Shown: piece by piece, positions 3,367-30,379 of the stretch
Position numbering within the stretch: the first letter of the stretch is position 1
Layout: each line of letters starts with the position of its first letter
Assembly: GCA_031283585.1 (NCBI GenBank)
Contig: JAITBP010000003.1
Span: 70,845-134,844 of the forward strand
DNA: 64,000 bases
Source of the DNA: Puniceicoccales bacterium
GTDB taxonomy: Bacteria > Verrucomicrobiota > Verrucomicrobiia > Opitutales > LL51
Direction of reading: 5' to 3'
Notes under the pieces: generated by a model
Database searches by the model: none
What the model saw: the letters and a program-made list of their open reading frames with translations, nothing else
Told to the model about the DNA's origin: nothing
Position numbers and translations under genes: made by a program

Positions 3367-4653
3367 ATGGGATTAACAGATGTATTGTGTGTCATAATGG
3401 GTGGTGGCAGAGGCACACGGTTATTTCCGTTGACAAGATATCGGTGCAAACCGGCGGTCCCATTGGCCGGTAAATATAGACTCGTGGATGTGCCTATAAG
3501 TAACTGTCTAAATGCCGGACTTAATAAGATATATATCCTAACCCAGTTTAATACAAGATCGCTCCATAGACATATAGAAAATACCTATAGATTTGACACC
3601 TTTGGTGGTGGCGGTATCGAAATTTTTTCAGCAGAGCAAACCGATGATGGTATCGGCAATTGGTACGAGGGAAATGCTGATGCAGTAAGAAAAAATATGC
3701 GTTACTTTAATGTCAATGATGATGATATAATGGTAATCCTATCCGGTGATCAGCTCTATAGAATGGATATTGCTGACTTCATTAGGCATCACATAGAAAC
3801 CAAAGCCGATCTTACCATTGCTGCCAAATCAATTATGACCGCAAAGGTTTCACCCTTCGGTGTAATGAGAGTAGACAGTAACTTTTCCATCTGTGAGTTT
3901 GTCGAGAAACCAACGGATCCATCTGTGATAGAAGAGCTTACGCTTCATGGACCTCTAAGAAATAATTTGAAAGATATGTCCGATACACCCTATGCATTGG
4001 TTTCCATGGGCATATATGTTTTTAAAGTTGGTATATTGAAAAGAGCTCTGGCTGGTAGCGGAACGGATTTTGGTAAGGAAATAATACCGTCTTTGTTGAA
4101 TAGGATCAGGTTAAAAGCATATATTTTTGATGATTACTGGGAAGATATAGGTACCGTGCGTTCATTTTTTGAAACCAATTTGATGCTAGCCAAGGATGTG
4201 CCGCAATTTAATTTTTTTGATGAAAAAAACCCAATATATACGCATCCTCGGGCATTGCCAGCGTCAAAAATAAATAGCTGCAGCATGAGGGAGGTCCTAA
4301 TCTCCGAAGGAAGCATAATCTCAGAATCTACGTTGCGTAGATGTGTCATAGGTCAACGAGGCATTGTGGGCAGAAGTTCTTTGATGGAGAATGTGTTGAT
4401 GATGGGTGCGAATATGTATGAAACCGCCGACGATGTGGCGAATAATAAAAAAATTGGGATCCCAAACATAGGTGTTGGCGACGGATGTTATATTCGTAAC
4501 TGCATAATAGATAAAAATGCAAGAATTGGTAATAATGTAAAATTAACCCCAGATAGAAAGGATGATGGATTCGAATACGACGGAATTTATGTAAGAGACG
4601 GGATATTATGTGTTGGACAAGATGCGATAATTCCTGACAATACCTCCATATGA
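3367..4653 (+). CDS. glgC: Glucose-1-phosphate adenylyltransferase
   Basis: The N-terminal nucleotide-binding motif MGGGRGTRLFPLTRYRCKPAVPLAGKYRLVDVPISNC is present, and a left-handed beta-helix-like C-terminus follows. Length is 428 aa. Confidence 0.9.
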   Translation: MGLTDVLCVIMGGGRGTRLFPLTRYRCKPAVPLAGKYRLVDVPISNCLNAGLNKIYILTQFNTRSLHRHIENTYRFDTFGGGGIEIFSAEQTDDGIGNWYEGNADAVRKNMRYFNVNDDDIMVILSGDQLYRMDIADFIRHHIETKADLTIAAKSIMTAKVSPFGVMRVDSNFSICEFVEKPTDPSVIEELTLHGPLRNNLKDMSDTPYALVSMGIYVFKVGILKRALAGSGTDFGKEIIPSLLNRIRLKAYIFDDYWEDIGTVRSFFETNLMLAKDVPQFNFFDEKNPIYTHPRALPASKINSCSMREVLISEGSIISESTLRRCVIGQRGIVGRSSLMENVLMMGANMYETADDVANNKKIGIPNIGVGDGCYIRNCIIDKNARIGNNVKLTPDRKDDGFEYDGIYVRDGILCVGQDAIIPDNTSI

Positions 4654-4725: not shown

Positions 4726-5577
4726 ATGTTGGTTAGTGTATTAGTAATGTTTTTGTTGTATGTTTATAGTGATACAATTTATCCAATTATAAATGAGAAA
4801 GTTATTTGCAATATTGATACCATGGAAACGGAGATATATAATAAGCTAAAGGCAACCAGTGGTGATGTATCACTCCAGGCTAGATTACTATTCGATAAGG
4901 TTTGGAATAATCTCGTTATCAAGTATGGTAATGAGGAGACGTTTAGAATGCCTCCATATATACTATGGCTAAATGGTGCCCCTGGTTCAGGCAAAGGTTC
5001 TAATACTCGCAGTATAATGAAGGCGACAAATATATTTTCTAAGCCGGTTGTGGTCAGCGACCTACTTAATTCAGACGACAATAAGGACCTGATCGATAAT
5101 GGATCGCTTATCGATGATGAGAAAGTCGTTAGACTGGTATTTGAGAAGTTGCTAGATGGCAGCTGTAAGGGTGGCGCAATAATAGATGGTTATCCTCGTA
5201 CGCTGATCCAGGCCGAGTGTGCCTATTTGCTCATGATAAAACTCCGGCAATTGCCTAAGGGTAAAAATACTAAGTTTTCTGTTGTAATTCTCAATGTGGA
5301 TGAAAAGACCAGTGTGGAGAGGCAGTTATACAGAGGTAGAATTGCCGAAATGAACAACGATAATGTGAAAAGAACCGGTGTTGGTGAGTTCCAGGAGATA
5401 CGTAAGACAGATATGGACCCCAAATTTGCTAGAGCCAGATACCGGACGTTTTTGGAACAAACAAAAGAAGCACTGGAGTTCATGAAGAAAGTCACCGAAG
5501 CCCATGAAATAAGCGCTGCTGGATCTTTTGAGGAAATAAAAACCAGGATATATGAGTCGTTGCGTAAAAAGATGTAA
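4726..5577 (+). CDS. Adenylate kinase-family nucleoside monophosphate kinase, atypical and long
   Basis: It has the P-loop LNGAPGSGKGS, IDGYPRTLIQAE (compare DGFPRT..QA of Adk), and a LID-like stretch R..GR...RKTDMDP...RYRTF. An alternative start at ATG 4822 (METEIYNKL) would remove the hydrophobic first 32 aa. Confidence 0.6.
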   Translation: MLVSVLVMFLLYVYSDTIYPIINEKVICNIDTMETEIYNKLKATSGDVSLQARLLFDKVWNNLVIKYGNEETFRMPPYILWLNGAPGSGKGSNTRSIMKATNIFSKPVVVSDLLNSDDNKDLIDNGSLIDDEKVVRLVFEKLLDGSCKGGAIIDGYPRTLIQAECAYLLMIKLRQLPKGKNTKFSVVILNVDEKTSVERQLYRGRIAEMNNDNVKRTGVGEFQEIRKTDMDPKFARARYRTFLEQTKEALEFMKKVTEAHEISAAGSFEEIKTRIYESLRKKM

Positions 5578-6769: not shown

Positions 6770-7795
6770 ATGGCAATTAGAGTAGCAATAAATGGGTTTG
6801 GTAGAATTGGTAGACTTGTCTTCAGGGCAATTGTAGATAGTGGGAAGTTTGGCAAAGAGATAGAAGTTGTTGCTGTCAATGACCTTGTCCCTGCGGATAA
6901 TCTGGCGTATCTGCTGAAATACGATTCTACCCAGGGTAAGTTTACCGGTGAGGTTCGGGCCGATGGTGAAGAGGTGTTAATAGTTAACGGTAAAAGGATT
7001 AGGTGCCTAGCAGTTAAGGATGGGCCCGGTGCCATGCCCTGGAAAGACCTGGAAGTGGATGTGGTCGTAGAATCGACCGGATTATTTGCCAGTGATATCC
7101 TTGCGGAAGGCCATCTGAAAGCCGGTGCGAAGAAGGTTATAATATCTGCTCCAGCCAAGGGCGAAAGAGTAAAAACCATTGTGCTTGGCGTCAATCATAA
7201 TACCCTAACCAAGGATCACAATATAATTTCCAATGCATCCTGTACCACCAATTGTTTGGCACCAATAACCAAGGTGATCGTTGACAATTTCGGCATAGTA
7301 GAAGGACTTATGACTACTATCCACAGCTATACAGCGACCCAAAAAACCGTGGATGGTCCGTCGCGTAAGGATTGGAAGGGTGGACGTAGTGCTGCGGTGA
7401 ATATAATTCCATCCACCACCGGTGCCGCCGCCGCCGTTGGATTGGTTTTACCTGAGGTAAAAGGTAAGCTTACCGGCATGTCATTCCGGGTACCGACTCC
7501 GACGGTTTCTGTGGTTGACCTGACTGTAAAGACCGAAAAACCAACGTCCTATAAAGAGATTTGCCAAAAAATGGAAGAGGCCTCCAATGGCTATTTGAAG
7601 GGAATTTTGTGCTATACGGCCGACGAGGTGGTTTCTTCTGATTTCATCCACTGCAGCCATTCTTCTATTTTTGATGCTGGATCTGGCATCGAACTGAACC
7701 AGACCTTTTTCAAGCTCGTCAGTTGGTATGACAATGAATGGGGTTACAGTTGCCGCTGCGTTGAACTTATCGACAAAATAAAACAATTTCTTTAA
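6770..7795 (+). CDS. gap: Glyceraldehyde-3-phosphate dehydrogenase (type I)
   Basis: It has INGFGRIGR and the active site [12 protein letters not shown], plus WYDNEWGYS. The track ORF starts at TTG 6752, but ATG 6770 ([15 protein letters not shown]) fits the family N-terminus. Confidence 0.95.
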
Positions 7796-7831
7796 ACTCC
7801 ATCCTATTCGATTCAAACGTTAGTTAATATT

Positions 7832-7859
7832 AAAAAAACAGCCTTCGGGCTGTTTTTTG
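7832..7859. terminator. Bidirectional rho-independent terminator between gap (+) and the 7886-8368 gene (-)
   Basis: The sequence is AAAAAAACAGCC-TTCG-GGCTGTTTTTT. It forms a GC-rich 6-bp stem with a tetraloop, flanked by an A-run upstream and a T-run downstream. Confidence 0.7.
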
Positions 7860-7885
7860 TAAGTAAAGATAAAGAAAAAAAACTG

Positions 7886-8368
7886 CTAGGTTTTTTCAAT
7901 GTCTTCAATATCAGGTATATTGCTTCGATTTATGCCGGTTATGACTATATCTATTTTATCGATATTTTTTATACCAATGTCATCGGCCAACACAATATGC
8001 AGGTGTTTTTGTAGCCTAGTACTGACCTCGGGTAGCTTCTGATCGCTAGGGATATTAAAGCTTATTTTGATATTTATTTTTTTACTTTTACAAAAAATAT
8101 CTATCCTTGGTCTGGACTGCATTCCTAGGGATTCGCAGGCTTCTCGGATGGTTTCCTTTAGTACGGATTTTTTTATAAAAACCTTACCACTTTCATTGTC
8201 CAGTAGGCACAGAATTGTTTTCTTGGCAGATCGTAGGGCGATTTTTATCAGGACATAAACGGCCATTAACCCAATAAACCACAGGAAATATCTAGAGGTA
8301 ACGAGGCAATAAATAACACCGTCTGTCTGAAGCTGAGTCAGCAGCCAATTATAAAAATCTCCTAACAT
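7886..8368 (-). CDS. Hypothetical membrane-anchored protein (loosely Asp23/AmaP-like architecture)
   Basis: It is 160 aa with one N-terminal TM segment (YFLWFIGLMAVYVLIKIAL) followed by a soluble domain. No diagnostic motif was seen. Confidence 0.4.
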   Translation of the reverse strand: MLGDFYNWLLTQLQTDGVIYCLVTSRYFLWFIGLMAVYVLIKIALRSAKKTILCLLDNESGKVFIKKSVLKETIREACESLGMQSRPRIDIFCKSKKINIKISFNIPSDQKLPEVSTRLQKHLHIVLADDIGIKNIDKIDIVITGINRSNIPDIEDIEKT

Positions 8369-10695: not shown

Positions 10696-12042
10696 ATGGC
10701 AACAGGAATGAAGCAGCGTACGATCAGACGAGAAGCAAGCATCCGTGGGAAAGCTCTACACACCGGCACCGAAGTAACTCTTACAATAAAACCAGCCAAG
10801 GAAAATGTTGGCATAGTATTCCGGCGCATGGACCTGTATAATAGGCCGGAAATTTGTCCATCGGTTGATGCCATCGGTGACCTGATTCGTTGTACGACAA
10901 TAACATCTGGTCACGTAAAGGTTCACACAGTCGAGCATATACTCAGCGCCATATACGGCATGAATGTGGACAACATCATCATAGAAATGGATGCTTCCGA
11001 GCCACCGATACTGGATGGATCGGCGAAATTTTTTGCTAATTTGATAAATGAAGCTGAACCTATTGAACAGGAGGAGGATCGTGTATACTGTGATATCACG
11101 AAGCCGATTTCTGTAACCCGGGGTAATCGTTCGATGATCGCCTTGCCCTACGATGGGTTCAAAATAACCTGTACTTCCTCCGATGATAGAGGCATACATA
11201 CACAGCATCTGTCCATCGACCTAGATCCCGAGGTTTATTTATCAGAAGTAGCTCCAGCAAGGACATTTACGATATATGAGGACATCGAAGAGCTCCTGAA
11301 GCTCGGCAAAATCCAGGGAGGCAGTTTGGATTCGGCAATAGTCATAAAGGGCGATAAGATATTATCAAAAGAGCCGTTGAGGTTTGCCGACGAGTTCGTT
11401 CGGCACAAGGTCTTGGATGTGGTAGGAGACCTGGCGTTGGTAGGAATGCCGATAAGGGGCCATATAATTGCCGTGAGGCCTGGCCATGCTTTGAACGCCG
11501 AATTAACAAGAGGCATTGTCAACTCGTACAATGAAGCAAAGACGGGTAAAAAAAAGATGCCTCAAACGCCGGCTGGTCCAGTGGTAATCAACGAGGAAGA
11601 GGCCTGCCTGGACATAAAACAGGTACTAAACACGTTGCCACACAGGTATCCATTTGTGTTGATAGACCGGGTTGTAGAATTCATTGGTGATACAGAACTA
11701 CGTGCCATAAAGAATGTTACAATAAATGAGCCCTATTTTGTTGGTCATTTCCCTGGCCAACCGGTGATGCCCGGTGTTCTTCAAATAGAAGCCATGGCCC
11801 AGGCTGCCGGCCTATTGATGATGCGCCGGGGTGGCATTGAAAACAAGTTAGCCTACTTTATGAGTTGCGACAAGGTCAAATTTCGGAAGGCCGTTGTGCC
11901 GGGCGATCAATTGGAAATATGCGTAAAATTACTGAAGCGGCGCGGAGACAGAATCGGTATAGCCGAAGCTCAGAGTAGAGTTAATGGGAAAGTCGTATCG
12001 TCGGCCGAATTGATGTTTTCCATAGTGGATCACGAAGAGTGA
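10696..12042 (+). CDS. lpxC/fabZ: Bifunctional UDP-3-O-acyl-GlcNAc deacetylase / 3-hydroxyacyl-ACP dehydratase (LpxC-FabZ fusion)
   Basis: The N-terminal half is LpxC-like ([36 protein letters not shown]). The C-terminal half is FabZ-like ([39 protein letters not shown]). ATG 10696 avoids the overlap with dnaA that the track start 10642 would create. Confidence 0.9.
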
Positions 12043-22609: not shown

Positions 22610-23287
22610 TTAATCAATTGCCATCGCTCTTAATGTGGGGATCGGAACTCCGCCACCAAGTGCCTCGGCTATGTTATTTGTGGGTGTTCCGGTGCCACTG
22701 TTTACCAACTTACCGTCCGATGGACCGGTGCCGAGATCACTAAACCACTCCACATGGCCATCTAGAAACCCAATGTATCCTCCTTTGTTTCCATAGATAC
22801 CGGTTGTATCCCATTTGCCATCGGCTCCAAGACCCCTGGTCCAGGCTATCGGTGTGATTGATGGATCAGCGTGGGCCGGAACTCCGGCAGCAACGCAAAT
22901 ACTTGTGATGGCATTCGTGAAATTGGAATCGGCAACACTGCCATCGGGCTTACAGATTATCTTCGAAGTGATTTTGGTGGCCATGGTATCATCCGGGAAT
23001 AGGTACATTCTGACATCATTCAGTAATCCGGCCTTGGCCAATATCACGGCCCATTCACCAACGGTATCCACTTCCTCGGGGTTAATGGTCGTACCTTCAC
23101 CATTCATGCTTGAAAATTGTAAATAGGCTTTAGCTATCTGGGCCACAGCATTGGCACCTTTCGTTCTTCTGCCCTGTTCCATGACCCTACTTGTTGCTGG
23201 CACAAGCATGGAGACCAATATGCCTATGACAGCCATGGCCACAAGTAACTCAACCAAAGTGAATCCACTTCTATGTTCCACACCCAC
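22610..23287 (-). CDS. Prepilin-type N-terminal cleavage/methylation domain protein (PVC-type pilin-like protein)
   Basis: The N-terminus is GFTLVELLVAMAVIGILVSMLVP. The C-terminal GFLDGHVEWF resembles the DGHV motif of the prepilin-associated domain that is abundant in Verrucomicrobia, Planctomycetes and Lentisphaerae. Confidence 0.75.
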   Translation of the reverse strand: MGVEHRSGFTLVELLVAMAVIGILVSMLVPATSRVMEQGRRTKGANAVAQIAKAYLQFSSMNGEGTTINPEEVDTVGEWAVILAKAGLLNDVRMYLFPDDTMATKITSKIICKPDGSVADSNFTNAITSICVAAGVPAHADPSITPIAWTRGLGADGKWDTTGIYGNKGGYIGFLDGHVEWFSDLGTGPSDGKLVNSGTGTPTNNIAEALGGGVPIPTLRAMAID

Positions 23288-25372: not shown

Positions 25373-26893
25373 CTATGATTTTTGTATTTTTTGAAAATAT
25401 GGTCTAATAAATGGTAATATCAATAGTCCAATGGCGAAAATTGTTGTGCCATAGTGGCAAGCTGTGGTATCCCAGCTCCAAAATAGCGGTATGTATTTTT
25501 CAAGGCCACTGAGCACGTTTTCGATGGCCGCAGCGCCGATGCCAGCGAAGAACAACAACATATTGGTAATAGCTTCTATATTAACGAGTAATGACAGTAT
25601 CGTTAGAGTTCCTGCGATGATGGTGACCCAGGCCACGGGAATAACTACTATATTCGCCAATATGCCAACCAGACTTATGGATCCGAAATATTCAAAGATC
25701 AAAGGTAGGCTTGCCATATTGGCTGCCAGAGATATGGCCAGGGAATCTATGATGGCATAGATTATTTTTTTTAACAATTTAGAAGAGGCAGTTATTTCGT
25801 CTTTTGGTACAAATTTGTCTATAGATACAAAGGATTTTAGTTTATTTGCCAGTGGTACACCAAGCAGTATTATATAGTACGCTACGCCGTAGGACATCCT
25901 AAAGCCTGGGTCAAACAATTGTACTGGGTTGACCAATAGAGACAATACGGCCGCATTGATAAGCGAAGAAAATGTGTTTGGCTTTCGGTTGAAATAGCAG
26001 GCACTCCAATAGAACGATAGCATTATAAATGCTCTGGAAGCCGATGGCGGCGAGCCTATTATGCCAAGATATAGGAAGGCAATCACCAGGCAGGGAATTC
26101 TCCTAAATTTTTTTCTCAGGCCAAGTATTCTGAGCAACAGTTCAAGAGAAAAGCCTATTATTCCCATATGCAGACCGCTTACCGCTAAAAGATGTGCTGT
26201 ACCGGTGTTGTGGAAGCTGTTTTTTTGCTCTTTGGATAGATTTGTTTTGCTGCTTAAGAGCATCCCTGGCAATATGCTGAGGAACGACTTTGTTGTATTT
26301 TTGGTCAGGCCCTGGTTGATTTTTTCATGGGCAATGAAGTATAGTTCGAATAATTTGGTCCCGTTGTCTGTTATTTTTTCTACGGTCCCATTCGACGCAT
26401 AGAGGAATACTTTGGATCTGTACAGATAGGAAAAGAATGAATTGTTTTTATCTAAGTTGTCTATTTTTTCAATGGCCGCATAGGTTTTAAATGATTGGGA
26501 CTGAAACAGATTGGCGCTATTGGTTTTTAGCATAAAGTATATGGGTTTGTCGATGATTACCCTATCTTCAGCGTCCTTTATGATTCCTTTGCCATAGGCA
26601 TAAAGACCAGAGCGAAAATATTTGGTCGCGACCTTGGTTATATGTATTTCCAGGTGTTGTTTGGCCTGGTGGCTAGGATTAGGTGGAGCACTATCGATTT
26701 GCCACATAGCATTTAGGTAGGAAATCACAGAGACTAGGCACAGAATAAGTCTATTTAATTTTGGTCCAGGTACTATGCAAATAGCTGATGCAATAATGAA
26801 AATTATATAAATTCCCCAGGAAATTTGTGACAAAATTATTCCTACTATTATAGCAACCAGAGCGAATAATAGGGGAGGGTAGTTTTCCAGCAA
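25373..26893 (-). CDS. comEC: ComEC/Rec2 family DNA internalization membrane protein lacking the C-terminal MBL domain
   Basis: It is a polytopic membrane protein with the competence-domain motif TGTAHLLAVSGLHMGII. At only 506 aa it has no HxHxDH region. Confidence 0.8.
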   Translation of the reverse strand: MLENYPPLLFALVAIIVGIILSQISWGIYIIFIIASAICIVPGPKLNRLILCLVSVISYLNAMWQIDSAPPNPSHQAKQHLEIHITKVATKYFRSGLYAYGKGIIKDAEDRVIIDKPIYFMLKTNSANLFQSQSFKTYAAIEKIDNLDKNNSFFSYLYRSKVFLYASNGTVEKITDNGTKLFELYFIAHEKINQGLTKNTTKSFLSILPGMLLSSKTNLSKEQKNSFHNTGTAHLLAVSGLHMGIIGFSLELLLRILGLRKKFRRIPCLVIAFLYLGIIGSPPSASRAFIMLSFYWSACYFNRKPNTFSSLINAAVLSLLVNPVQLFDPGFRMSYGVAYYIILLGVPLANKLKSFVSIDKFVPKDEITASSKLLKKIIYAIIDSLAISLAANMASLPLIFEYFGSISLVGILANIVVIPVAWVTIIAGTLTILSLLVNIEAITNMLLFFAGIGAAAIENVLSGLEKYIPLFWSWDTTACHYGTTIFAIGLLILPFIRPYFQKIQKS

Positions 26894-26940
26894 TTTTTTG
26901 TACTTATTAAAAATTTGTGATGGATGTATCAGTTGGCCTC

Positions 26941-26958
26941 GATTTGTTCAATGCAAAA
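26941..26958. repeat. Direct repeat copy 1 (GATTTGTTCAATGCAAAA)
   Basis: This is an exact 18-mer that also occurs at 29949-29966. It lies 48 bp upstream of the comEC start and 106 bp upstream of the 958-aa ORF. Confidence 0.9.
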
Positions 26959-27064
26959 ATTTGTGACTTGAAAAATTTACACCAATCCTATTAACTGCGA
27001 TGATTTTATATAAAAAGCGTAAATAATTGTAGTTTTTATATTTTTTTAAATAATTGATTTTATT

Positions 27065-29941
27065 ATGTATCTATCTAGGGCTATCTTGTACAATATACTT
27101 ATCTGTGCGGGTTCTTTGTTATTTAGCGTAACCGCTCTGGGTGCTTCAACTACATCCTTTGCAAAACGGTATGATGAAATACGTGAATTTATTGATTCAG
27201 ATAAATGTAAACCTGAATACGAACAATCGCTGAAGTCTTTGGTTGGTAAAGAGTTTACTCTTACACAGGATTGTTTTGAAAAATTGGAAGACGATACCGT
27301 AACTCCTTTGGTCATCGATCTATTTGAAGGAAAGAACCTGGCTGTTGCCATAAAGAAAGTTATTGAGTTTTATCTGAATCCAGAAAATACCACGGATAAT
27401 GAAGGAAAGAATACTCCGTTCATTTTTGGACACTTTGGAATTGTAGATGACATCAGGAATAATGATGAGCTAAAAAATAAATTATCTTCTATTTTGGAAG
27501 AATTAAATAAGACGCATGAAATTGTAGATGGCTACGAAAATTATTTTGAAAAATTAATTACAATCAGACCTTTTTTGTTGGATGCTCATGATTTAATAGT
27601 CAAAGATGCTAACATTAAGGCCGACGGTGGTCTGGCGAAGTTTATTAAAGGTGCCATAAGGATTATCAACACAGTAGAAGCAAGTGGGATGGCAGCAGAA
27701 ATTTTGAAGACACTCAGAAGTGATGCAGAATCAGAGCTGCTTAGTGCAGGTGTTTCCAATGATGTTTCGGTAGATATTTCTAGTAATGGTGTTGTAAGCC
27801 TAAGCGCCGGAATAAGCTATTCGGTGAAAAAAGGAGTAGGAGCTAACTCTTTGTATGAAATATCTAGTAAAATTGGTGCTTCTGCTGGAGTCAAAATAAA
27901 AGTTCCTGGTGATATTTTTTCTCTTTCTGGAACCATTAGTGCAGAGGTTGCCTACACATCTCTTTTCTTCTCCATTGAGCAACTGCTAGATTCAGGTGAA
28001 TTACTGGCAGGAGATCAGCCAGGACATATTTCTAAAGCCCTTTTTAATGAGCTTTCTGGGAGTAGGCAAAGATTACAGGATAAAGAACGGGAATTGTTAG
28101 CTTGTTTTGGTACTGATGTCGAAAATTTCCTAAAGATGCTTATGGTTATACCTTTTGACGTGAATATACGTTGGCCACGAATTACCCGGGCCGAAGGAGC
28201 CATGTCGAGCGTTTCTAAAACATTGGAAGCTGCAATATCTGCAGAGATAACCAGTTTAATTGAGTTAGGATTTGAATTTACTTCAAGCTGTACAAGTACG
28301 ATTTACAAAAAATCGCATCCTTTTTTATCCCTGCTCAATGATGATTGTTTTCCAGCAAATAATCTAAATATAAAAGATATTAAGAAAATCATAGGCTCAA
28401 AATATGATCTTTCTGGCAATTTTATTAAGGACAAGCTTATTAAGGACAAGATTCCAGTCCTATATCAAAGTTATATATTTTTAGGAGACCTTCGTGATTA
28501 TGTTTCTACTCTGGCAGATTTGGCAGAATTGGCACAGGATATAAAAGTGCTTGTGGAAGCCAAAGATGATTATGGAAAAAAGAGTAAAATTTCAAAAATA
28601 GGATTTAGCTACGTGGTTGATAAAGAAAATGGGTCGGATACAGATAAAAAATTAAAAGCTAAAAAAGCCTTAGTAAAGGAATTGACAAAGAGAAAACATA
28701 AATATGAATCTAGCCTTTCTCCTAAGAATCTAATTGGCTCCGAAGGACGTTTAGGGGTTTTGAAAGCCTGTATTATCACCGCGGCGATTCTAAGAAGTGC
28801 AGCAAAAACAGAAGAGGAAATTTCTTTGTTTAGGAAGATGTTCATGGAGATTGAGAAACTATCGCTACTTTTGGAGTTGTCGAAGGATAAAAATTCTAGA
28901 AAAGGAAGTTTTTCTCATAGCGCAAACCAGAAACTTCGTGACATTGGATATGCCGGATCTATGACGGTCACTATTCCAGGAATTATTGAAAACGTTACCG
29001 TAAGTTGTGATTATCATAATGTTTCGAATAGCGTGTTTTTAGACGAGGACGGGACATCCATTTCGTTAACTATAAAAATACCATCATACTTTGTCGATAA
29101 AGATATTACTAATAAATTGATAAACCTTTGTAAAGAAAAATCCAAAAACTCTAAAATTGAATCGATCAAAAAAATATTTAGATGCATGAAAAACTCGATT
29201 AGTTGGTTTGCGTCAAAATATGATAATTTAACGGCTTCCGAGCTTATTCCTTTTGTCAACATAAAAAGCCTTATTTATCGGGGTGAAATAGAAATAAGTA
29301 CATCTATTGCAAAAATACCAGGTAACTCTTCGCCAGAATCATCAAAACCAAAACCTATACCTGGCAGAAAAAAGTTTATTAAAACCAAATCCAAATGGAA
29401 GCGGGTTTATTCTCAGTACAGTGTGGTTCTTCCATCGACCTATACAATACCAGGCAAAGAGGAGATAGAAAACAGCCTGAAAAAGATCGTACCAATAGAG
29501 GTAACCTTAACTAAAGAGCTTACCCAAAATACTCAACAACTTGGAACTGAGACTCTTAATTACATTGTTTCCAGGTTCAACGTGTGGCAAATGGGTCTTA
29601 GCGGAGAAGAGGATAACGTTAGTGTAACCTGGAATTCCTTTAAGAGTAGCAATAAACAAGAACTGTCAGGAATTATAAAAAATATAGGCAGTAGCAAACC
29701 AGGCATTCTTTATGAGCTGCAATGTATTTATAACGACAACCTAGGAAACGTTAATAAGATGACCAAAAAAGACAATAAGATTTTCGAGAACTTGCTTAAG
29801 TGTTGTAGTACTTTTGTACAAAACGAAACAGATGCCAACCTTAATGCAGCTCTAGACGCTTTAGATGAGGTACTAAAATTCAACTACAAAAACAATTTTC
29901 TTGTGCACTATAACAAGGCATTTTCTCTGAAAAAATCTTAA
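27065..29941 (+). CDS. Large secreted orphan protein (958 aa), function unknown
   Basis: The ORF is uninterrupted. It has a Sec-type signal peptide (LLFSVTALGA|STT), is K/S/N-rich, and carries an alternating-polarity beta-like segment at aa 228-303. I recognise no family motif, and the gene is more AT-rich than its neighbours. Confidence 0.6.
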   Translation: MYLSRAILYNILICAGSLLFSVTALGASTTSFAKRYDEIREFIDSDKCKPEYEQSLKSLVGKEFTLTQDCFEKLEDDTVTPLVIDLFEGKNLAVAIKKVIEFYLNPENTTDNEGKNTPFIFGHFGIVDDIRNNDELKNKLSSILEELNKTHEIVDGYENYFEKLITIRPFLLDAHDLIVKDANIKADGGLAKFIKGAIRIINTVEASGMAAEILKTLRSDAESELLSAGVSNDVSVDISSNGVVSLSAGISYSVKKGVGANSLYEISSKIGASAGVKIKVPGDIFSLSGTISAEVAYTSLFFSIEQLLDSGELLAGDQPGHISKALFNELSGSRQRLQDKERELLACFGTDVENFLKMLMVIPFDVNIRWPRITRAEGAMSSVSKTLEAAISAEITSLIELGFEFTSSCTSTIYKKSHPFLSLLNDDCFPANNLNIKDIKKIIGSKYDLSGNFIKDKLIKDKIPVLYQSYIFLGDLRDYVSTLADLAELAQDIKVLVEAKDDYGKKSKISKIGFSYVVDKENGSDTDKKLKAKKALVKELTKRKHKYESSLSPKNLIGSEGRLGVLKACIITAAILRSAAKTEEEISLFRKMFMEIEKLSLLLELSKDKNSRKGSFSHSANQKLRDIGYAGSMTVTIPGIIENVTVSCDYHNVSNSVFLDEDGTSISLTIKIPSYFVDKDITNKLINLCKEKSKNSKIESIKKIFRCMKNSISWFASKYDNLTASELIPFVNIKSLIYRGEIEISTSIAKIPGNSSPESSKPKPIPGRKKFIKTKSKWKRVYSQYSVVLPSTYTIPGKEEIENSLKKIVPIEVTLTKELTQNTQQLGTETLNYIVSRFNVWQMGLSGEEDNVSVTWNSFKSSNKQELSGIIKNIGSSKPGILYELQCIYNDNLGNVNKMTKKDNKIFENLLKCCSTFVQNETDANLNAALDALDEVLKFNYKNNFLVHYNKAFSLKKS

Positions 29942-29948
29942 AAATCTT

Positions 29949-29966
29949 GATTTGTTCAATGCAAAA
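29949..29966. repeat. Direct repeat copy 2 (GATTTGTTCAATGCAAAA)
   Basis: It is identical to 26941-26958. It starts 8 nt after the stop of the 958-aa ORF and lies 80 nt upstream of tRNA-Leu. Confidence 0.9.
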
Positions 29967-30008
29967 CAGCTATTCGGACCCGGTGACTGCCTGGATCAAT
30001 TTTTACTT

Positions 30009-30043
30009 GCAAATGCCACTGTAGTCGGCAGGTTGGCATTTGC
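30009..30043 (+). other. Strong hairpin abutting the 5' end of tRNA-Leu
   Basis: A perfect 10-bp stem forms between GCAAATGCCA (30009-30018) and TGGCATTTGC (30034-30043) with a 15-nt loop. There is no T-run, and it ends 2 nt before the tRNA. Confidence 0.5.
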
Positions 30044-30045
30044 TT

Positions 30046-30132
30046 GCCCGGATGGCGGAATTGGCAGACGCGTCGGACTCAAAATCCGATTCCAGTGATG
30101 GAGTGAGGGTTCGACCCCCTCTCCGGGCACCA
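30046..30132 (+). tRNA. tRNA-Leu (anticodon CAA), type II with long variable arm, CCA encoded
   Basis: I folded it by hand. The acceptor stem is GCCCGGA/TCCGGGC, the anticodon loop CTCAAAA sits on stem TCGGA/TCCGA, the variable arm is TCCAGTGATGGAGT, and the T-arm is GAGGG-TTCGACC-CCCTC followed by A-CCA. Confidence 0.9.

Positions 30133-30304: not shown

Positions 30305-30379
<75 letters not shown>

Follow-up and report, generated by a model that had tools for sequence, protein, structure and literature searches.

A conserved 18-bp element on both sides of a gene between comEC and tRNA-Leu in Puniceicoccales: a probable resident member of an undescribed protein family

Introduction

A gene that lies between two perfect copies of a short direct repeat, next to a transfer RNA (tRNA) gene and with less G+C than its surroundings, raises the question of whether it arrived recently as a mobile cassette or is a long-standing resident of the chromosome. 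Such a gene is present in a 64,000-nt stretch of a Puniceicoccales metagenome-assembled genome (MAG; assembly GCA_031283585.1, contig JAITBP010000003.1, positions 70,845 to 134,844), here called the window. It is an open reading frame (ORF) for a protein of 958 amino acids (aa), located between comEC and tRNA-Leu(CAA) and enclosed by two copies of the 18-mer GATTTGTTCAATGCAAAA. An earlier sequence-only reading took the repeat, the tRNA, the AT-richness and a secreted orphan protein together as the signature of a horizontally acquired or recombination-mobilised cassette. Comparison with related genomes and an exhaustive profile search of the protein led to a different interpretation. We consider it probable (about 0.6) that the segment is a resident gene of the Puniceicoccales lineage, vertically inherited within it and neither recently acquired nor currently mobile, and that the repeat is a conserved cis-element.

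Occupation of the locus in related genomes

Comparison within the lineage covered three genomes: the window and two metagenome contigs, L001 (9.6 kb) and L002 (22 kb), which are the only relatives on record. The ComEC protein of the window has a counterpart with 100% identity whose named source is a Puniceicoccales MAG. It is 71-72% identical to that of L001 and 67% identical to that of L002, and the next best match falls to 33%. Both relatives share the gene order of the window, in which minus-strand comEC is followed on the plus strand by a large ORF that lacks Pfam domains and then by tRNA-Leu(CAA). The large ORFs are homologous over their full length, with 37-43% protein identity to the window ORF: the L001 protein is 43% identical in its N-terminal part and 34% in its middle and C-terminal parts, and the L002 protein is 37% identical from end to end. 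With L002, synteny also includes the left flank comEC-MoxR-DUF58-pilin-like. Because the same slot is occupied in genomes that have diverged to ~70% identity in ComEC and ~40% in the ORF protein, the common ancestor of all three already had the gene at the comEC/tRNA-Leu locus.

The sequence-only reading had proposed a search among relatives for an empty site, with one copy of the repeat between comEC and tRNA-Leu. Both relatives proved to be occupied, and no empty site emerged when a ComEC profile and the tRNA-Leu sequence were run against reference genomes and JGI metagenomes. Distant ComEC homologues (~30% identity) showed neither shared synteny nor an empty site, and in another Puniceicoccales contig, L005, tRNA-Leu(CAA) lies near dnaA, not near comEC.

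Composition of the gene

The AT-richness reported for the insert is real, though modest. The ORF has a G+C fraction (GC) of 0.355 and a G+C fraction at third codon positions (GC3) of 0.310, against 0.420 ± 0.032 and 0.417 ± 0.046 for 43 long ORFs. It ranks second lowest in the window, after ORF 299-1627, and low values are also found in housekeeping genes such as mutL (0.385) and the gene for an extracytoplasmic function (ECF) sigma factor (0.370). The same bias accompanies the gene in its relatives. GC and GC3 are 0.313 and 0.261 for the family member of L001, against 0.396 and 0.429 for comEC, and 0.297 and 0.240 for that of L002, against 0.386 and 0.420 for comEC. No gene at the locus is more AT-rich than the family member in any genome examined, including the contigs L005, L007 and L008. 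Since a foreign composition would not last through such divergence, low GC is a property of the family and not a mark of recent transfer, and the AT-richness shared by the orthologues therefore argues against recent acquisition. Serine, lysine, leucine, isoleucine and asparagine are abundant in the 958-aa protein, and the AT-richness would be a trait of the gene family that combines a composition rich in lysine, asparagine, isoleucine and serine with low GC3.

These findings bear directly on the idea of a foreign cassette recently inserted beside a tRNA, in which the 18-mer would be a fresh attachment-site or target-site duplication. An exact 18-bp direct repeat, the adjacent tRNA and the lower GC all suit this idea, as does the spread of the protein family over unrelated phyla (see below). 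Against it, both relatives carry a strongly diverged version of the gene at this locus, its AT-richness is matched in the orthologues, both copies of the repeat have diverged orthologues in L001 and L002, the repeat is not tRNA-gene sequence, the segment lies 5′ and not 3′ of the tRNA, and there is no integrase. We regard a recent cassette as very improbable. For the sequence-only reading, a gene that relatives share at the same locus, with typical composition and without empty sites, would have spoken against a cassette; the shared locus and the lack of an empty site were found, and the composition is atypical in the relatives too.

Conservation and placement of the repeat

A recount in the window agreed that the 18-mer is present exactly twice around the ORF, both times on the plus strand, and the ORF is the only one in the segment so bounded (Table 1). 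The first copy is found in the intergenic DNA that separates comEC from the divergently oriented ORF. The second begins 7 nt past the stop codon and ends 79 nt ahead of tRNA-Leu(CAA), and the adjacency to the tRNA reported earlier thus stands. The match grows to 20 of 21 positions when the preceding trinucleotides (CTC/CTT) are included, and the sequence AAAAATTTGTGA is found on either side of the first copy (at about 26916 and 26955). No third copy was detected in the 64 kb at up to two mismatches, and the match count at three mismatches is three. If low-complexity repeats are left aside, the 18-mer is the longest exact direct repeat of the window. When the window was shuffled with its dinucleotide composition preserved, the longest exact direct repeat reached 18 nt in 2 of 60 cases (about p 0.03), and taken alone the repeat is of borderline significance.

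It is the comparative data from the other genomes, rather than the statistics of the window, that make the repeat clearly non-random. The element is present on both flanks of the gene in all three genomes (upstream and downstream, respectively, ATTTGTTCAATGCAAA and ATTTGTTCAATGCAAA in the window, TTTTATTCAATAAAAA and ATTTATTCAATTCAAG in L001, and ATTTATTCAACACAAA and ATTTACTCAATATAAA in L002). A 16-mer common to the six flanks gave a sum-of-pairs score of 192 out of 240, and none of 200 shuffles reached this value (145.6 ± 4.6, maximum 162). A coincidence within AT-rich intergenic DNA would accommodate the shuffled windows that do contain an 18-nt repeat; with the motif on both flanks in two further genomes and with a conserved spacing to the flanking features, it can hardly be credited. 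A widespread motif, such as a repetitive extragenic palindromic (REP)-like element, was the other finding that, for the sequence-only reading, would have spoken against a cassette, and many copies would be expected of it; the 18-mer is not dispersed within the 64 kb. A degenerate core of the element gave three matches against 1.0 expected. The third of these, an exact match of 13 nt at 716-728, lies within the coding sequence of ORF 299-1627, where it reads in frame as DLFNE, and is probably due to chance. The possibility that the element is a relic of the coding sequence of the 958-aa ORF, from the conserved DLFE region, was also considered and rejected, as the flanks and the ORF DNA have no similarity.

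Alignments of the flanks of the three genomes showed the element as a conserved island on both sides of the gene. Downstream, no other conserved block separates the stop codon from the T-run/TTGCAA block. The distance from the end of the downstream copy to TTGCAA is 40, 42 and 42 nt in the window, L001 and L002, and the distance from the stop codon to the copy is variable (7, 26 and 27 nt). Upstream, the element read on the minus strand gives TTGAAY, exactly 14 nt and TGATA in all three genomes, ~47 nt before the start of comEC, and the conserved blocks of the upstream alignment (TTCAA, TATCAG and AAAATTT) coincide with the TTGAAY and TGATA positions. Read in this way, the upstream copy looks like the source of a −35-like TTGAAY, followed by an extended −10, in a promoter for comEC. 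A putative promoter of the ORF can be proposed as well, and its counterparts are TTGCGA-16-AATAAT in L001 and CTGCAA-16-AATAAT in L002.

The upstream region of the window has also undergone a tandem duplication of a module of ~52 nt. Both duplicated units align to one single module in L001 and L002; the comEC-side unit retains the intact element and the ORF-side unit has a decayed copy, GATTTTATATAAAAAGCG (27002-27019). The repeat is thus a real, conserved and locus-specific element whose positions are fixed to comEC and to tRNA-Leu, not to the ORF.

In front of the tRNA, a conserved T-run, CAATTTTTAC, precedes the block that extends from TTGCAAAT to GGCAGGTTG, and it may end the ORF transcript. 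A hairpin before this T-run is significant in L001 alone (z −2.8), and no terminator-like site of the window passed the scan. The pre-tRNA-Leu block (30007-30045 in the window, 5098-5139 in L001 and 2992-3032 in L002) has no recognisable −10 hexamer at the usual spacing, and L005 has the sequence CTTGACT equally far from its own tRNA-Leu; the promoters of tRNA genes may be unusual in this group.

Table 1. Features of the comEC/tRNA-Leu locus in the window (window coordinates)
Feature	Position	Strand	Remarks
comEC	25373..26893	-	506 aa, Pfam Competence domain only; divergent from the 958-aa ORF
Window-specific tandem duplication of the ~52-nt upstream module	26910..27022	+	Unit 1 26910-26962, unit 2 26963-27022
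Putative comEC promoter	26923..26951	-	TTGAAC (26951-26946), 14 nt, TG-A-TACATC (26931-26923); read from sequence
Upstream copy of the element	26938..26958	+	Exact 18-mer 26941-26958; orthologous to the upstream copies of L001 and L002
Putative ORF promoter	27027..27054	+	TTGTAG (27027-32), 16 nt, AATAAT (27049-54), ~10 nt before ATG; read from sequence
958-aa ORF	27065..29941	+	Signal-peptide-like N-terminus; uncharacterised family, proteins ~860-1300 aa
Downstream copy of the element	29946..29966	+	Exact 18-mer 29949-29966
Conserved pre-tRNA-Leu block	30007..30035	+	TTGCAAAT (from 30007) to GGCAGGTTG (30027-30035)
tRNA-Leu(CAA)	30046..30132	+	Nearly identical in L001 and L002

Likeness of the two copies within each genome

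The comparison of the two flanks revealed a further property of the element. Local alignment of the upstream flank with the downstream flank of the same genome gave scores of 37 in the window, 23 in L001 and 38 in L002 (p < 0.003, 0.023 and 0.003, respectively), and the six pairs formed across genomes scored 19-23 (p 0.07-0.40). The copies of the window share two derived bases, both G where the copies of L001 and L002 mostly have A, and in L002 the stretch common to both flanks spans 32 nt with 81% identity. In this sample of three genomes, the two copies thus look as if they undergo concerted evolution or co-variation within genomes, which is compatible with occasional recombination, with a shared binding partner or with pairing between the 3′ untranslated region of the ORF and a minus-strand transcript. 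That an active process, either recurrent recombination across the 3-kb gene or a functional coupling, keeps the copies alike within each genome is a tentative proposal, and we would not expect it to prove correct.

The first form of such a process assumes that the repeats are still used as recombination sites, so that the 3-kb segment is excised and reintegrated, or amplified and collapsed, and the copies are homogenised; the work would be done by a recombinase whose gene lies elsewhere, or by unequal exchange driven by homology. The within-genome likeness, which is highest and significant where the cross-genome pairs are not, the G bases shared by the copies of the window and the 32-nt stretch of L002 would all be explained. 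Duplications are moreover seen around members of the family, as in the upstream module of the window and in a 129-nt repeat of the contig L007 described below. However, the site is occupied in all three genomes even though the proteins have diverged to 37-43% identity, there is no recombinase within about 9 kb on either side, and the element, as far as its sequence can be read, lacks a convincing two-arm recombinase-site architecture and is unlike dif. In addition, 18-32 nt is short for homologous exchange and three genomes are too few for a firm signal of concerted evolution. We therefore judge continued recombination at the repeats unlikely.

In the second form, one partner would act on both sides of the gene, either a DNA-binding protein (e.g. 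a silencer or a nucleoid protein that nucleates on each flank) or at the level of RNA. In the RNA version, the element in the 3′ untranslated region of the ORF and its complement in the minus-strand leader of comEC would form an 18-bp duplex that couples the two genes. Conservation of both copies and their co-variation within genomes are expected from a common partner or from base-pairing. Located between the stop codon and the T-run, the downstream copy is probably transcribed, as a significant hairpin precedes the T-run in L001. In L001 and L002, six differences separate the copies; four of these have a G-U-compatible direction, but this proportion is not different from chance. If the putative TTGAAY-N14-TGATA promoter is used, the comEC transcript starts downstream of the element and lacks its complement. 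No candidate regulator was identified, and any such protein would be dedicated to this locus, as the element is found nowhere else in the 64 kb. A shared partner is, in our view, a doubtful explanation, on a par with recombination.

A family of uncharacterised proteins

The N-terminus of the 958-aa protein resembles a signal peptide, with a charged start and hydrophobic residues at 6-29 that end in ALGA, in agreement with the Sec signal peptide proposed earlier. The absence of an assignable motif was also borne out, as Pfam and NCBIfam gave no match. The claim that the protein is an orphan did not survive. Word-indexed protein searches, with the ORF or with a two-sequence profile, returned one homologue only; this result was misleading, because 81 representatives at E <= 1e-3, 44 of them at E <= 1e-30, came up when 1.84 billion cluster representatives were searched exhaustively with an HMMER profile. 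Most of them are 860-1300 aa long and match in three stretches. Nearly all of 59 aligned members have signal-peptide-like N-termini, and neither the protein nor the family members matched anything in Pfam above threshold, PHROGs, PADLOC or NCBIfam. Sequence-profile searches of the PDB did not give a match either.

Named members come from several Puniceicoccales MAGs, several Holosporaceae MAGs, one Alphaproteobacteria MAG and one Clostridia MAG, and one cluster of 77 sequences is located on contigs of ~300 kb among Mur ligase and LigA genes. This patchy distribution across unrelated phyla indicates transfer at some time. A literature search on the host taxa of the family taken together did not produce a match. 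The Holosporaceae are placed in groups whose members are known to live as symbionts inside protists. One of the contigs with a family paralogue, L007, also encodes an ankyrin-repeat protein (10813-11625), and this observation, together with the Holosporaceae members, hints at an association with eukaryotic hosts.

The window does not contain a second copy of the family, and a second conserved Puniceicoccales locus is found elsewhere. There, a paralogue lies directly upstream of glgC-adk-prfA (L005 8001-10709, L006 3-2660 and L007 443-3625; L006 and L001 share a sample of origin). In L005, tRNA-Met lies ahead of the paralogue, and tRNA-Leu(CAA) is situated 1.5 kb further upstream beside dnaA. 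The element is absent from the paralogue loci beside glgC. In L007, the paralogue is bracketed by a 129-nt direct repeat with 95% identity (154-282 and 3597-3725), which comprises the final 28 nt of the ORF, the intergenic DNA after it and the first part of glgC. Upstream there is also a 180-nt piece of the glgC 3′ end with 82% identity (300-479 vs 4728-4907), and the contig ends just upstream. This arrangement looks like the remnant of a tandem duplication of the ORF-glgC unit.

Predicted structure and possible role

With the alignment of 59 sequences, AlphaFold produced a model with a mean predicted local distance difference test (pLDDT) of 84.6 and a predicted template modelling score (pTM) of 0.86; with two sequences, the pLDDT was 33.6. 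The model has a disordered signal peptide, a helical N-terminal region, 12 long strands and a helical C-terminal domain (832-952). The predicted strands form four groups (228-301, 380-419, 615-673 and 741-826) with long helices between them. A weak BLAST segment had hinted at an internal duplication, which was rejected after hhalign of the N half against the C half gave a probability of 1.2%.

Foldseek against the PDB returned outer-membrane barrels only (FadL, SusC, BamA, CymA and autotransporter translocators). The homology and structure searches recommended by the sequence-only reading thus delivered homologues in number, and from the PDB only weak barrel matches. The 958-aa protein resembles outer-membrane β-barrels such as FadL, the autotransporter translocator, BamA and SusC in its signal-peptide-like N-terminus and in the 12 long antiparallel strands of the model, with alternating polar and hydrophobic residues. 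It differs from them in that long helical insertions divide the predicted strands into four groups, in that the model ends in a helical domain instead of a barrel strand, and in that the sequence has no match in Pfam, NCBIfam or the PDB. A role in the cell envelope or at the surface is a guess that draws on the signal peptide, the pattern of strands and the rapid evolution of the protein.

Comparison with known systems

Islands integrated at tRNA genes have a repeat that corresponds to the 3′ end of the tRNA gene, lie 3′ of the tRNA and carry an integrase at their tRNA-proximal end. P4-type islands at tRNA-Leu resemble the present locus in that a segment of deviant composition lies beside tRNA-Leu within a short exact direct repeat. 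Here, in contrast, the repeat is located 79 nt upstream of the tRNA and is absent from the tRNA sequence, the segment lies 5′ of the tRNA, there is no integrase, and the gene is syntenic in divergent relatives. Three marks of a tRNA-integrated island were looked for at this locus, namely an integrase (within about 9 kb on either side), a repeat derived from the tRNA 3′ end and empty sites (in the two relatives and the collections searched), and none of the three was found.

A second comparison is with elements that exploit the Xer recombinases (dif islands and pdif modules), which likewise consist of a single gene or small module between short sites and have no recombinase of their own. The dif site is roughly 28 bp long, with two 11-bp arms around a 6-bp spacer, and pdif modules are usually flanked by inverted sites. 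The element of the window appears unlike the dif architecture, and no mobility is seen among the three genomes.

A further parallel may be drawn with elements shared by divergent promoters (−35/UP-like elements or regulator sites). Common to both are an AT-rich element of ~18 bp at a fixed distance from its neighbours, a minus-strand TTGAAY at −35 distance from a conserved TGATA, and a conserved island in otherwise diverged intergenic DNA. The present case differs in that there are two direct copies 3 kb apart, which co-vary, and in that the −10 hexamers are weak.

Neighbouring genes

In agreement with the sequence-only reading, no integrase or transposase was found among the ORFs within about 9 kb on either side of the segment. 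The flanking genes in this interval are all housekeeping (YidC, Cmk, pilin-like, DUF58, MoxR, ComEC, SPFH, IspD, PyrG, amine oxidase, RecJ and SecDF). Rfam identified two tRNAs and nothing else, and the tRNA that follows tRNA-Leu is tRNA-Asn at 30305. Synteny ends right after tRNA-Leu, from 30133 onward in the window, from 5227 onward in L001 and below 2905 in L002. Past this point, the window has tRNA-Asn and the SPFH gene, and L001 and L002 have a gene for a secreted Metallophos-like protein, whose 5′ end shows 25-nt matches at 84% to the region upstream of the large ORF, possibly by chance. Further along L001, the GC peaks at 0.514 in 7501-8000 (~0.35 around it) within a partial ORF of 807 aa, and a long ORF on the opposite strand (7211-7897) has a repetitive translation, which suggests a repetitive coding region.

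On the other side of the locus, the pilin-like protein (22610-23287, minus strand) has an N-terminal methylation motif and a C-terminal segment with LDGHVEWF. Its gene clusters with those of DUF58 and a MoxR ATPase beside comEC, and the same cluster is present in L002. ORF 299-1627 on the plus strand (442 aa) has the lowest GC of the window (0.348, GC3 0.275) and no Pfam match; its motifs THRHGDHFDY and LPHHGS resemble the metallo-β-lactamase domain at the C-terminus of full-length ComEC. Distant ComEC homologues (~800 aa) add DUF4131 and Lactamase_B to the Competence domain that the ComEC of the window has alone. Judged from these motifs, ORF 299-1627 may be a split-off or diverged partner of ComEC.

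Discussion

The reading of the segment as a resident gene with a conserved cis-element can be extended to a history of the locus. The gene would encode a fast-evolving, Sec-exported protein (about 900-1100 aa), and this protein is one member of a larger undescribed family. comEC and tRNA-Leu would once have been divergent neighbours with one shared copy of the element. Before the three lineages separated, the gene would have been inserted between comEC and tRNA-Leu together with its own promoter, the element being duplicated thereby, and both copies would have been retained, each serving its neighbouring gene. Because both copies are positioned by the flanking genes and not by the ORF, insertion with duplication of the element is the simplest history, and such an ancient insertion is possible and plausible. 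The cassette interpretation would survive to this extent: an ancient insertion fits the locus, and recent acquisition and orphan status do not. Current mobility of the segment is unsupported.

Several points weigh against the resident-gene reading or against parts of it. The conservation of the locus rests on only three genomes, and an outgroup with an empty site was not found. If two sites with separate functions were each conserved on their own, the copies would not be expected to be alike within each genome. The promoter assignments come from a reading of hexamers; the proposed comEC −10 hexamers are weak (TACATC, TAGGCA and TAGACG) and lack the final T, and a consensus promoter scan did not list the TTGAAY-N14-TGATA site. 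With respect to the protein, the Foldseek matches to barrels are weak (best E 1e-3, template modelling score 0.25-0.34, root-mean-square deviation above 15 Å), and some members come from Clostridia-labelled MAGs, which may lack an outer membrane.

The locus is a cautionary case for genome scanning, in which a flanking repeat, a tRNA, low GC and the lack of a match in word-indexed searches mimicked a mobile orphan cassette. Two related contigs and one exhaustive profile search were enough to overturn both 'recent' and 'orphan'. Beyond this, what emerges is a sizeable unnamed family of putatively secreted proteins of ~900 aa, with a confidently predicted structure that appears unlike any solved one. 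Should the concerted signal of the two copies prove real, it would be a sign that genes of this kind are maintained or reshuffled in a way not recognised so far. A fast-evolving gene for a surface or secreted protein of a new family would then occupy a self-homogenising, recombination-prone slot between comEC and tRNA-Leu, and the family would be one that is common to unrelated bacteria, some of which, as the Holosporaceae, fall within groups that live inside protists.

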